In this document: positions 7,618-11,051 of the stretch, piece after piece | Layout of the letters: the number at the start of each line of letters is the position of its first letter | Position numbering within the stretch: position 1 is the stretch's first letter | DNA from: Nitrospirota bacterium | GTDB taxonomy: Bacteria > Nitrospirota > Nitrospiria > SBBL01 > JAADHI01 | Assembly (NCBI GenBank): GCA_029261135.1 | Contig: JAJDBX010000013.1 | Location: 431 to 64,430 of the forward strand | DNA: 64,000 nt | Reading direction: 5' to 3' | The notes under the pieces: model-generated | The model's input: the letters and a program-made list of their open reading frames with translations, nothing else | Databases searched by the model: none | Told to the model about the DNA's origin: nothing | Position numbers and translations under genes: made by a program

Positions 7618-7674
7618 GTTTAATTCAGCAAAGTCTCACAACCCTGTGAATTGTGAAACATAAGGTTAGACAAG

Positions 7675-7953
7675 ATGAGTTCTATACAATACCGACCTAA
7701 AGAAGTGTGCAAGTTACTAGAACTTTCTTATCGCCAGCTTGAATACTGGGTCTTGATTGGCGTCGTCAAACCCGCATTTGAACCTCACGGCAAGAAAAAG
7801 TACCAGAAATTCAGCTATGAAGACCTTCACTTTTTAAAAAAAGTAAAAGCACTGACAGATGAAGGCTATCTTGTCAGCCGAGCAGCCGAAAAACTCAGAA
7901 AATTGATGAACCAAGAAAAAAATGTTCAATATTCTGTGAAGGTGGCGTCTTGA
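7675..7953 (+). CDS. MerR-type HTH DNA-binding protein (no effector domain)
   Basis: YRPKEVCKLLELSYRQLEYW..IGVVKP...FSYEDL..LK.VK.L.DEG. Confidence 0.8.
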   Translation: MSSIQYRPKEVCKLLELSYRQLEYWVLIGVVKPAFEPHGKKKYQKFSYEDLHFLKKVKALTDEGYLVSRAAEKLRKLMNQEKNVQYSVKVAS

Positions 7954-7988
7954 CTAGACGGTTTAGAAGCGTGCTTTAAGAAGGAGCT

Positions 7989-10900
7989 ATGATGGTAACA
8001 CAATGCCCGAAATGCCAAGTGACACAAAGAATTGAGTTCAATCAATTTGACGAAGATTCCGTAATTTTCTGTGGTGATTGTCAGAGCCCATTAAGGATAA
8101 AAGTCGTATTAGAGATTGCTGGAAACGCTGGCGAACAATATACAAACAGCCTTGACCAAGCGCTTCCTTCAAGTGAAAAAAGAGAGAATCAAAAGTCAGT
8201 CATCGTTTGCATTGATGGAGAGGCAACACGGGCTGTGGTCAAAGAAATACTAGAACAAGCCGATTTTCATGTGCTTGATATCCCTTCAGGCATATCAACG
8301 TTCATGTCCATGAAACTGGAGGCCCCTGAGGTGGCACTCATTGATGCGGGTTTCACCGATATGTCGGGTACAGAATTAAGTGCTCAGATTAAGGGAAATT
8401 CAGATCTTAAAAATACCGCCACGCTTTTAGTCAGTTCAATGTTTGAAAAAAATACAAAGTATCGACAACAACCTCCTAATTTATACGGTGCAGATGATTA
8501 TATTGACCGTATTCAAATTCAGACCCAACTATTGTCGAAAATAGAAACCCTCCTAAAAAACAAAGCGAACGGACAGCAAAAATCATTGGACGCATTAGAA
8601 TCCGTACTTGAAACACCTTCTGCAGAAGAACTCCTTACCGGAGGAGGCGAAAGCCCAAGTGCAAACGAAATTTCAGAGGAAAGAGTAGAAGTCGACGAAC
8701 AATCATTCCAGGGTGCTGAAGCACCTGAAACGCCACCGTCCGTTCAAGCAAGTTCAGGGGAAGCATCTTCTGAAATACCAGCAGAAGCGCCGATGGAAGA
8801 AGATTCCGAAGCGCTCAAAGAGGCGAGGCGTCTTGCAAAGCTGATCGTTTCCGATATTGCTTTGTATAATGAAGAGAAAGTGGTGGAAGGTCTTCAAAAA
8901 GGGATTTTTTATCAAATTCTTGAAAATGATATTAAAGAAGGAGAACGTCTTTATGAATCGAGGGTGGATGAATCACTTTATGATTTAGGGATCTTCGAAC
9001 AAGAAATAAAATCGTTTATTGAGAAAAGAAAAGAAAGCCAAGATCAGCGACCTGAAATCATGAACGATTTTCCTGAAGCCGTACAAAAATTAGATGTGAA
9101 AACCGATAAAATTTCTCAAACCCCTGAAGCGGATACCAGTGAAGCAGAACCAGAGACTGAGACAGAAATCTCGGCGGGGCAAGGACCCATTTTTGATAAA
9201 AGTGACGAGGCACTCAAGAAAGCGACTCAAATTTCCCGGGATATTATAAGTGATATTATCAAGAGCAATGAAGATAATCTGCCGAAAGTCATTGAGATAG
9301 ACGATCTTTATGAAATTCTTGGCGATGAAATTATGACGGGTCGACAACTTTTTGAACAAAAAGTGCCCGCATATTTTGATTCGAGCCTTTATGAGGAAGA
9401 AATTGACCGTATCCTTGAAGAGAGAAATGGGGGAGAAGGCCCACTTGTTGATGAGATCCTGTCAAATCCAGAGACGAAATCACCTGAAGGTCAAAACTCC
9501 CGGACCTCACATGAAGGTTTAGAGATTCCTGAACCTGAGGATTCAGTGGATGTCATCAAACAAATAGAACAAGAGGCCGTGAATGTTGTAGAAGGCTCAC
9601 CTCCCCCAATGCCGGAGAGTGCTTGGGAAGATTCCGTTATCCCAGAGACCCAAAATACCGATGATGTCTTCAAACAAATGGAACAAGAGGCCACAGGTGT
9701 TCCAGAAGGCTCACCTCCCCCAATGCCGGAGAGTGCTTGGGAGGATTCCGTTATCCCAGAAACCCAAAATACCGATGATGTCTTCAAACAAATGGAACAA
9801 GAGGCCGGAGGCGTGTCTGAAGAGGCTGTTTCTCAAACCCAGGAAAATATTTGGGAGGATTCTATTCCCCCCGAAGTCAAAAATACAAGAGATGATTTTA
9901 GAGAAATGGATCAAGAAATCGATCCTGCAGTCACTGGTGACATTCCTCAAACGACAGATAGTGCATGGGACGATTCATTCGCGGGTCCAATCCCTGAAGA
10001 TCCAAACGATCTATTTAATCAATTGGAACAAGAGGTCTCGGCCGTGGCCGAAGTAGATACACCTGCACTGGAGAAAGCTGACCTTTCTCCAGAAAATGGA
10101 GAAATCGATGATCTTCTTGGCAATCAGAAAAGTCTCTCGAACCAACCCGAGCAAGACGCTTCCATACCACAACTTGAAAAAGATAAGGCCCTCCCTGAAA
10201 TGGGGAGCACAGATGATATTTTTGGAAAAATGGAAAGTCCAAAGGAAGCTTTCGAGCAAGATAGGGGTACGCCGCAACTTCAAGAAGATAAAGCTCACAC
10301 CGCTGCTTCACCTCAATCTGAAGTAACGTCTACATTCGCGACATCCGAAATAGAAGACTCAAATGAAATTAAAGAAGCCAAGCGGATTGCAAAAATTATT
10401 CTCTCTGATATTGTGATTTACAATGAAAAGAAAGTGGAAGAAGGCATAAAGAATAATACCTTTCATCTTGTCCTTCAAGAGGAAATAAAAGAAGGACGTA
10501 TCCATTTTGAATCAAGAGTCTCTAAAAATATCTTTAAATCAGGACTTTTTGAAAATGTGATCGACGACTTTATCCTAGACAGAAACACCACAGCAGATCA
10601 GTCTGCACCCAGTCCGGATAACACACCTGATGTAGTGGAAGAACAATCCGAATTTTTTCCAGCCGAACCGACAGCAGCAGTACCATCACCAGAAGAGGAT
10701 ATTTTCGGGATTGAATCCAACCCGGAGATTGAAACTCGCAATGCAGCCACGGAAGCCCCAAGCGCTCCTATGCCCTCAGGAAATGGAAATGCATTGGTCG
10801 CCGAAACAAAGGTAGAGAAAGAGGCACTGCGACTTGCAAAGATCATCGTTTCAGACATTGTGATCTATAACGAAGATAAAGTCGAAAAAGGCATTCAATT

Positions 10901-11051
10901 CGGCAATTTTTATGAAATCCTTGAAGAGGAGATCAAAGAAGGAGAAGCCCTTTACGAATCACGTGTCTCTAAAGAAATATTAGAAGAAAAAAACTATTTA
11001 AAAGAGGCCATTGAAGATTTTATTAGCAAAAAATCCACGGCCTCTTCTTAA
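7989..11051 (+). CDS. Zn-ribbon + atypical receiver (REC) domain + acidic disordered linkers + four RomX-like helical domains
   Basis: CPKC/CGDC; REC (VALIDAG, LYGADDYIDR); four copies of A.R.AK.I.SDI..YNE.KV..G.....F...L..EIKEG...YESRV (second copy degenerate); RBS AAGGAG. Confidence 0.8.
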   Translation: MMVTQCPKCQVTQRIEFNQFDEDSVIFCGDCQSPLRIKVVLEIAGNAGEQYTNSLDQALPSSEKRENQKSVIVCIDGEATRAVVKEILEQADFHVLDIPSGISTFMSMKLEAPEVALIDAGFTDMSGTELSAQIKGNSDLKNTATLLVSSMFEKNTKYRQQPPNLYGADDYIDRIQIQTQLLSKIETLLKNKANGQQKSLDALESVLETPSAEELLTGGGESPSANEISEERVEVDEQSFQGAEAPETPPSVQASSGEASSEIPAEAPMEEDSEALKEARRLAKLIVSDIALYNEEKVVEGLQKGIFYQILENDIKEGERLYESRVDESLYDLGIFEQEIKSFIEKRKESQDQRPEIMNDFPEAVQKLDVKTDKISQTPEADTSEAEPETETEISAGQGPIFDKSDEALKKATQISRDIISDIIKSNEDNLPKVIEIDDLYEILGDEIMTGRQLFEQKVPAYFDSSLYEEEIDRILEERNGGEGPLVDEILSNPETKSPEGQNSRTSHEGLEIPEPEDSVDVIKQIEQEAVNVVEGSPPPMPESAWEDSVIPETQNTDDVFKQMEQEATGVPEGSPPPMPESAWEDSVIPETQNTDDVFKQMEQEAGGVSEEAVSQTQENIWEDSIPPEVKNTRDDFREMDQEIDPAVTGDIPQTTDSAWDDSFAGPIPEDPNDLFNQLEQEVSAVAEVDTPALEKADLSPENGEIDDLLGNQKSLSNQPEQDASIPQLEKDKALPEMGSTDDIFGKMESPKEAFEQDRGTPQLQEDKAHTAASPQSEVTSTFATSEIEDSNEIKEAKRIAKIILSDIVIYNEKKVEEGIKNNTFHLVLQEEIKEGRIHFESRVSKNIFKSGLFENVIDDFILDRNTTADQSAPSPDNTPDVVEEQSEFFPAEPTAAVPSPEEDIFGIESNPEIETRNAATEAPSAPMPSGNGNALVAETKVEKEALRLAKIIVSDIVIYNEDKVEKGIQFGNFYEILEEEIKEGEALYESRVSKEILEEKNYLKEAIEDFISKKSTASS
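9567..10035 (+). repeat. In-frame 114-bp (38-aa) tandem repeat inside the 1020-aa protein
   Basis: Unit starts at 9567, 9681, 9795, 9909, ~10026; first two units nearly identical (GSPPPMPESAWEDSVIPETQNTDDVFKQMEQEA), later ones degenerate. Confidence 0.9.

Follow-up and report, generated by a model that had tools for sequence, protein, structure and literature searches.

Why would one bacterial protein carry four copies of RomX, a weak adaptor that joins RomR and MglA-GTP 1:1 and has so far been described in a single organism? The question is raised by a stretch of 64,000 nucleotides from a Nitrospirota bacterium (assembly GCA_029261135.1, contig JAJDBX010000013.1, positions 431 to 64,430; hereafter, the window), in which an open reading frame (ORF) at 7989..11051 of the forward strand encodes a protein of 1020 amino acids, with a zinc ribbon, a receiver (REC), two RomX domains, acidic repeats, and two more RomX domains, in this order. 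The initial annotation of the window interpreted this protein as a fusion of RomR and RomX, that is, a one-protein polarity scaffold and guanine nucleotide exchange factor (GEF). Judging by its domain content, the array protein is an amplified member of the Zn-ribbon–REC–RomX family and the sole RomX carrier found in its genome, and we favor its predicted role as a multivalent docking scaffold for MglA-GTP, probably involved in the positioning of machinery at the cell pole, type IV pili being the likeliest case.

The interpretation starts from the identity of the repeated domain. The four copies, all on the forward strand, occupy 8805..9047 (amino acids 273–353), 9201..9446 (405–486), 10359..10601 (791–871), and 10809..11048 (941–1020, the C-terminus), in agreement with the positions at which four helical repeats had initially been noticed; each comprises approximately 80 residues, and their identity to the first repeat is 33–51%. 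The profile of the four repeats compared to the PDB retrieved chain 8zna_A, annotated as RomX, with the E-value 2.9e-22 (81.8 bits), the runner-up having the E-value 1. Taken one by one, domains 1 to 4 match the same chain with the E-values 2.6e-13 (53.3 bits), 2.4e-07 (34.6 bits), 3.3e-13 (52.9 bits), and 8.1e-18 (67.4 bits), respectively. The proposed similarity to RomX thus holds, and by profile comparison all four repeats are confirmed as true homologues of RomX from Myxococcus xanthus. The fragment of RomX quoted in the initial annotation appears in the 8zna_A alignment, and the second repeat, described there as degenerate, indeed yields the weakest match.

Pfam and NCBIfam scans of the full protein and of single repeats gave no family covering the four RomX domains. 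The RomX helices at 10800–10940 (amino acids 938–984) spuriously match PF09192, the actin-fragmin kinase family, and one relative (P0019) reaches 26.3 bits with this model, above its 24-bit cut-off, the RomX domain itself being without a Pfam model; in databases, relatives are labeled “PleD family response regulator.”

The residues of RomX reported to contact MglA are retained. In M. xanthus RomX, Arg11, Arg14, and Asp19 of helix 1 form the side facing MglA-GTP, and their mutation abolishes the exchange activity; the R11A and R14A substitutions also abolish binding of RomX to MglA-GTP (10.1101/2024.02.20.581209). The equivalent residues are Arg, Lys, and Asp in repeats 1, 3, and 4, and Gln, Arg, and Asp in repeat 2, which also has a conserved motif of its own (consensus KAPAYFDSS). 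The same preferences are seen in the family at large: among 232 RomX-like domains from 155 proteins, the position of Arg11 is occupied by Arg in 203, that of Arg14 by Arg or Lys in 219, and that of Asp19 by Asp or Glu in 227.

The presumed partner is encoded in the same genome (3.22 Mb in 77 contigs, 95% complete), where the initial annotation had suggested a search for mglA, mglB, and pilus genes. An mglB–mglA pair is located on another contig (C66); the product of mglA scores 318.7 bits against the solved M. xanthus MglA and retains Glu108, Glu111, and Glu115, and the product of mglB scores 171.8 bits against the solved M. xanthus MglB. Type IV pilus genes are represented by four PilT-family genes above the family cut-off and by PilM; FliG is also present. 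The search of six-frame ORFs with the repeat profile found no RomX domain in this genome beyond the ORF considered here. This genome has a single MglA, of 195 amino acids; in the phylum sample described below, many Nitrospirota have a second MglA paralogue in frames of about 300–700 amino acids (long-tailed MglA). Just 5′ of mglB lies an ORF of 98 amino acids without a family match (L001, contig C66, 1057–1353, forward strand).

The link to MglA is further supported by co-occurrence. Among 41 relatives, including the genome itself, both RomX domains and MglA are present in 27, RomX only in two, MglA only in three, and neither in nine; for 150 genomes drawn across the phylum, the respective numbers are 69, one, eight, and 72. 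Hence MglA is found in 27 of 29 and in 69 of 70 RomX-bearing genomes, these counts spanning related, non-independent genomes, with whole families holding both or neither. The two RomX-only relatives are G001 (98% complete) and G008 (52%), all three MglA-only relatives are less than 90% complete, and the single RomX-only genome of the phylum sample is 79% complete. On these counts, RomX domains and MglA are shown to be gained and lost together across Nitrospirota, and an MglA-type GTPase, expected by the initial annotation in genomes encoding such proteins, accompanies them in nearly all cases, G001 being a real exception. The guess that the host is not a myxobacterium was also correct, the relatives being metagenome-assembled genomes of Nitrospiria, Nitrospira, Nitrospirota, and Candidatus Manganitrophaceae. 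Moreover, in two metagenomic proteins an MglA-like GTPase resides on the same chain as RomX-like domains, three in P0021 (805 amino acids) and two in P0046 (1005 amino acids), P0021 being 45% identical to the MglA of our genome over 191 residues (E-value 1e-56).

How unusual is the array itself? A RomX profile search of representative proteins yielded 2492 matches at E ≤ 0.001, including 432 with E ≤ 1e-10, and at least four matched stretches were observed in eight of the best 150 representative proteins. Counted over 155 proteins, 116 have one RomX domain, 14 have two, 15 have three, seven have four, and three have five. In the Pfam scan of 85 representatives, a receiver was found in 39, 16 of which also have Zn_ribbon_4, a small GTPase in two, and TIR in two; thus, the order Zn-ribbon–REC–RomX is common. 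The array protein conforms to it, having a four-Cys ribbon, a receiver, and a C-terminal RomX-like domain, and its single-RomX relatives from the same class, of about 330–400 amino acids, have the same domain order. The novelty of the fusion as initially seen is therefore limited, since the combination of zinc ribbon, receiver, and RomX is widespread and has been described in a 2024 preprint (10.1101/2024.02.20.581209), whereas the four-module array does look new. All 70 RomX-positive genomes of the phylum sample have one or two RomX domains, none having more than two, and in the genomes with two domains these are encoded at separate loci. In our genus, two to five RomX domains are encoded by one gene (in G006 this gene is split across two contigs), and in sister genera, one or two domains are found.

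The array is also old. In a tree built from 58 domains of 23 proteins, the domains cluster by their position across homologues that are 35–64% identical, the support values being 97/83 (C-terminal type), 100/99 (domain-2 type), and 87/90 (domain-1 type); domain 4 of the array protein is accordingly the orthologue of the RomX domain found at the C-terminus of multi-domain homologues. One extra N-proximal type, with support 99/97, is missing from the array protein, and the standalone RomX proteins cluster apart, in a clade with support 100/94. Such grouping by position means that every module has been maintained on its own, in favor of distinct or additive roles and against recent expansion of a repeat. 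The tree thus shows the four modules to be old paralogues, each retained at its own position, and an array of four to five positionally orthologous modules, which was observed in this genus and its close kin alone, appears to be new. We found no paper on RomX in Nitrospirota, nor any on tandem RomX arrays, the fold-hit table of the 2024 preprint (Table S2 of 10.1101/2024.02.20.581209) lying outside this search.

Other combinations were seen among the proteins with RomX-like domains. P0022 and P0037 have a membrane anchor and four RomX-like domains; P0087 combines TIR, a protein kinase, and two RomX-like domains; and P0094 has TIR and RomX-like domains. In a class-level relative (G037), the Zn-ribbon–REC–RomX gene is followed by an ORF for a HEAT-repeat protein (L007, 2457–4034), and in P0015 HEAT repeats are fused to a Zn-ribbon–REC–RomX protein.

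With four copies of a domain of this kind, the protein probably serves as a scaffold that has several docking sites for the MglA polarity switch. By homology with RomX, each module would be a three-helix bundle binding MglA-GTP via helix 1. The linkers between the modules are long, acidic, and probably disordered: linker 1 (8562..8804, forward strand), likely disordered judging by its composition, has the net charge of −17, and the entire protein, with 224 Asp and Glu residues versus 91 Lys and Arg, has the net charge of −133 and the isoelectric point of 4.18, consistent with the acidic linkers noted at the outset. One chain might therefore hold up to three or four molecules of MglA-GTP. The RomX–MglA complex has been reported to be weak and transient (10.1101/2024.02.20.581209), which provides a rationale for multivalency, as an array of weak binders would have high local capture capacity and increase the dwell time of MglA-GTP at the cell pole. 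Concentrated or stabilized there, MglA-GTP would direct polar machinery, with type IV pili as the likeliest target.

The zinc ribbon and the atypical receiver would then be the likely input or anchoring part. The ribbon (CPKC...CGDC, amino acids 1–40, 7989..8108, forward strand) was identified by the alignment of cysteines and weak Pfam matches. Cys6, Cys9, Cys28, and Cys31 are invariant in all eight aligned relatives; the Pfam zinc-ribbon matches of the array protein are weak, and PF13717 is matched in 16 of 85 related proteins. The nearest solved relative is the LysW ribbon (E-value 6.3e-5 in the comparison of the profile with the PDB), the matched chains being generic ribbons, none of them named GltJ. 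The receiver (amino acids 69–191, 8193..8561, forward strand) is recognized at amino acids 72–184 by PF00072 with 27.2 bits, just below the cut-off of 30.2, and by many NCBIfam receiver models. The acceptor Asp119 (in ALID), Asp76, and Ser149/150 are kept, while the position of the conserved Lys is occupied by Arg174 (in YIDR), and the acidic pair is represented by Ile75–Asp76, that is, the first acid of the pocket is lost. This agrees with the initial description of a zinc ribbon followed by a receiver with retained Asp and lost Lys. Arg at this position is a trait of the family, as judged by 88 receivers of RomX-bearing proteins, of which 47 have Arg and 27 have Lys. Due to the replacement of Lys and the loss of one pocket acid, phosphorylation of the receiver is uncertain despite the retained Asp.

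Several observations weigh against the scaffold. The gene adjoins neither mglBA nor pilus genes. The set of canonical phospho-accepting residues is incomplete in the receiver, and domain 2, the most divergent one, lacks the equivalent of Arg11. MglA being monomeric, a benefit from multivalency is argued here and not observed. The presence of RomX-like domains on proteins with TIR, kinase domains, and membrane anchors implies that the fold is not tied to MglA everywhere. In the genome G001, which belongs to the same genus and encodes a 967-residue protein with five RomX domains, the protein search found neither MglA nor MglB; since mglB and mglA are adjacent, one missing contig could explain this case. 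Finally, the function of RomR and RomX is itself disputed: RomX alone has been reported to stimulate nucleotide exchange (10.1101/2024.02.20.581209), whereas another study describes RomRX as an effector of MglA-GTP, not a GEF, with RomR competing for MglB (10.1101/2024.10.31.621274). The label of GEF initially given to the array protein is therefore contested, and, like RomX itself, the protein may or may not accelerate nucleotide exchange. Nevertheless, we retain the multivalent docking scaffold as the preferred interpretation.

The region between RomX domains 2 and 3 might extend this role. It consists of 304 residues (9447..10358, forward strand; core at 9543–10088), has an acidic composition with the net charge of −60, and contains repeats of 38 residues, in which the motif ..(E/D)SAWE(D/S).. 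is followed, 13 residues on, by D(V/L)F.(Q/E)(M/L)E. All four Trp residues of the protein fall in these repeats (codons at 9624, 9738, 9852, and 9966). At the DNA level, a tandem repeat with the period of 114 nucleotides is observed (2.3 copies, 92% identity), and two of the 38-residue units are near-identical. Selection of units by Trp and a loose D-V-F-x-E-M-E pattern gave 27 units from eight proteins. At positions outside the selecting pattern, Ala at −1 is conserved in 26 of the 27 units, Asp at −3 in 22, and Pro at +3 in 17, and the spacing of 13 residues between Trp and the second motif is fixed in 23. By the motif count, homologues have one to five such units. No other instances of the Trp/Phe motif were found in the ORFs of the genome, and the motif is missing from two full-length single-RomX relatives, L035 and L037. 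The repeats would probably act as short motifs on which a further partner docks; the conserved acidic 38-residue Trp/Phe repeat looks new.

The helix at the C-terminus of RomR has been reported to bind the Roadblock protein MglC via an acidic surface where a Trp is crucial (PMC12719032), and for this reason the acidic repeats were compared with the RomR-C motif. The idea that the AWE repeats are copies of RomR-C was rejected, as the profile of 45 RomR-C-like tails yielded no match; what remains is a loose analogy, an acidic sequence with Trp.

If the acidic repeats do recruit a partner, the protein might be a one-chain hub for both sides of the polarity switch, in which the RomX modules form a multivalent store of MglA-GTP and the repeats dock MglB or the RomR-like protein or a TPR effector; being multivalent on each side, it could bring about polar clustering or condensates. 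This extension of the docking scaffold is tentative, and we consider it possible at best. If true, bacterial GTPase polarity would here follow a design principle that has not been seen in Myxococcus, in which the corresponding functions are distributed among separate partners interacting 1:1.

The original proposal, that the own receiver of the protein plays the part of RomR, with the RomX modules docking on it in cis, so that a single-chain GEF replaces separate romR and romX, seems doubtful. It does explain why a receiver and RomX reside on one chain while no standalone RomX was found in the genome, and the REC–RomX interaction has been proposed to be built into fused regulators (10.1101/2024.02.20.581209). 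According to the same preprint, the side of RomX facing the receiver of RomR is formed by Leu75, Arg76, and Trp87, the latter inserting into the interface with RomR-REC. In the profile alignment, a basic residue occupies the position of Arg76 in all four repeats (Arg, Arg, Arg, and Lys, respectively), this mapping being approximate because the residue numbers of the chain in the HMMER alignment differ by one from those of the paper (Leu75/Arg76). However, the sequence check revealed no Trp after any of the four repeats, and thus the receiver-docking tail of the Trp87 type is missing. The Trp tail is in general rarer in longer proteins, being present in 14 of 33 standalone RomX-like proteins and after 9 out of the 199 domains that belong to longer proteins.

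Moreover, the genome seems to have a RomR of its own. Screening of its 51 receiver-containing ORFs for low-complexity tails yielded one candidate, P0157 (270 amino acids, contig C75, 66888–67697, reverse strand), in which a canonical receiver that retains the Lys is followed by a linker and, at the C-terminus, by a conserved helix. In the motif of this helix, ...EKVAWEVV.P.AE.EIKKEI.RLQ, the Glu, Lys, Trp, and Glu at −4, −3, 0, and +8 have the same spacing as Glu390, Lys391, Trp394, and Glu402 of RomR (PMC12719032), and the architecture of P0157 agrees with that of RomR homologues as published (PMC10329633). The protein has 55 homologues, all from Nitrospirota where named, with the helix kept in most. 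It is present in 31 of the 41 relatives, three of which have neither MglA nor RomX, hence its tie to MglA is looser. We consider P0157 a candidate for a separate RomR orthologue. The search of the array protein with the RomR-C-like profile, covering the Trp repeats and the C-terminus, found no RomR-type C-terminal helix, the C-terminus being a RomX domain; its receiver has no BLASTP similarity to that of P0157, and comparison of this receiver with the PDB, which contains no RomR chain, gave matches to generic receivers. Thus, if the assignment of P0157 is right, the array protein is not a substitute for RomR.

Other Nitrospirota also argue against the replacement, as they encode a fused protein along with a standalone RomX that has the Trp tail; in the genome inspected (G108, from another family of the phylum), this standalone RomX has 88 residues. 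Such coexistence suggests that the fused family is a lineage parallel to the canonical pair and did not arise by fusing it. The gene of this standalone RomX (L043, contig C1, 2826–3092, forward strand) lies directly 5′ of a gene for an EF-G-like GTPase of 706 amino acids. Along with the contested GEF activity (10.1101/2024.10.31.621274), these data support the initial proposal in part: a receiver and true RomX domains do reside on one chain, the RomR-C helix and the Trp tail are missing, and the separate RomR-like gene argues against the one-protein interpretation.

It is similarly unlikely that the bundles have drifted from MglA and become general modules for protein–protein interaction or oligomerization, in a scaffold for pilus ATPases, TPR effectors, or cyclic di-GMP proteins. 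Such drift would account for the RomX-like domains in TIR, kinase, and membrane-anchored proteins, for the array without detected MglA or MglB in G001, for the absence of linkage to mglBA, and for the conserved motif of domain 2, unlike that of RomX; on the other hand, it is hard to reconcile with MglA being present in nearly all RomX-bearing genomes of both samples, with the conservation of the MglA-contacting residues, and with the existence of MglA–RomX fusions.

The sequence of the gene appears reliable. The Shine–Dalgarno sequence AAGGAG, read directly at 7980..7985 on the forward strand, is at the spacing of 4–9 nucleotides 5′ of the ATG codon. Four public DNA runs from one study, two of which may be the very source of this DNA, match the stretch with a single difference, G>A. 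In all four runs, contigs end inside the 114-nucleotide tandem repeat at 9619–9777, none bridging it, hence the copy number there is without independent bridging. That this long repetitive ORF has been mis-joined in assembly or is decaying and non-functional, as this unbridged repeat splitting the contigs of the runs might suggest, is highly improbable given the frame open over 1020 codons with a good ribosome-binding site, the matches of the stretch outside the repeat in four runs, 13 homologues (570–1002 amino acids, 25–64% identity) with related architectures and positionally orthologous domains, and conserved synteny among relatives.

The neighborhood comprises genes for a deacetylase, a MerR-type regulator, a thiolase-like protein, and a protein of 125 amino acids, and the order deacetylase–MerR-like–RomX-array–125-residue protein is retained. 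The MerR-type helix–turn–helix gene (7675..7953, forward strand; 92 amino acids; PF13411, 38.6 bits) ends 35 nucleotides upstream of the ORF and is possibly co-transcribed with it; its orthologue lies directly upstream in three out of three same-genus loci with available upstream DNA, and in six out of seven loci of named relatives. For the MerR-like protein and the 125-residue neighbor, Pfam and NCBIfam gave nothing beyond MerR_1. Upstream of the MerR-like gene, at 7630–7660, each of the four public runs has contigs that end or depart from the window, with an alternative flank, as would be expected from variation between strains or from the edge of a repeat.

Taken as a whole, the RomX-type module emerges as a widespread and portable MglA-linked domain without a Pfam model, and its recognition corrects the current database labels, that is, “PleD family response regulator” and the PF09192 matches. 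The array offers a test bed for distinguishing valency and avidity from catalysis as the contribution of RomX to polarity.

The predicted scaffold can be compared with several known systems. One is the zinc ribbon of GltJ from the gliding machinery of M. xanthus, reported to bind MglB, for which an analogy has been drawn in 10.1101/2024.02.20.581209: both proteins have an N-terminal zinc ribbon and belong to the circle of MglA, with no sequence link found between the ribbons. M. xanthus RomR, composed of a receiver, a disordered region, and an acidic C-terminal helix binding MglC, shares with the array protein the N-terminal receiver followed by a long acidic, Pro-containing low-complexity sequence; the array protein differs from it in lacking the RomR-C helix and in having Arg instead of Lys in the receiver. 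With M. xanthus RomX (PDB:8ZNA), a small three-helix bundle that binds MglA-GTP and keeps this polarity GTPase active, the array protein shares sequence homology, the helix-1 residues, and co-occurrence with MglA. Unlike RomX, which is standalone (the 8ZNA chain has 95 residues) and binds RomR-REC 1:1 with Trp87 in the interface, it carries four copies in a chain of 1020 residues, without the Trp tail, in a clade apart from standalone RomX. Further counterparts are the uncharacterized regulators found by Foldseek, as the 2024 preprint reports, with RomX-like folds in tandem with receivers and a zinc finger, for instance, A0A2N6E6P0 (10.1101/2024.02.20.581209). The domain order, zinc finger–REC–RomX fold, is the same, and the array protein extends it from one RomX-like fold to four, together with the acidic repeats.

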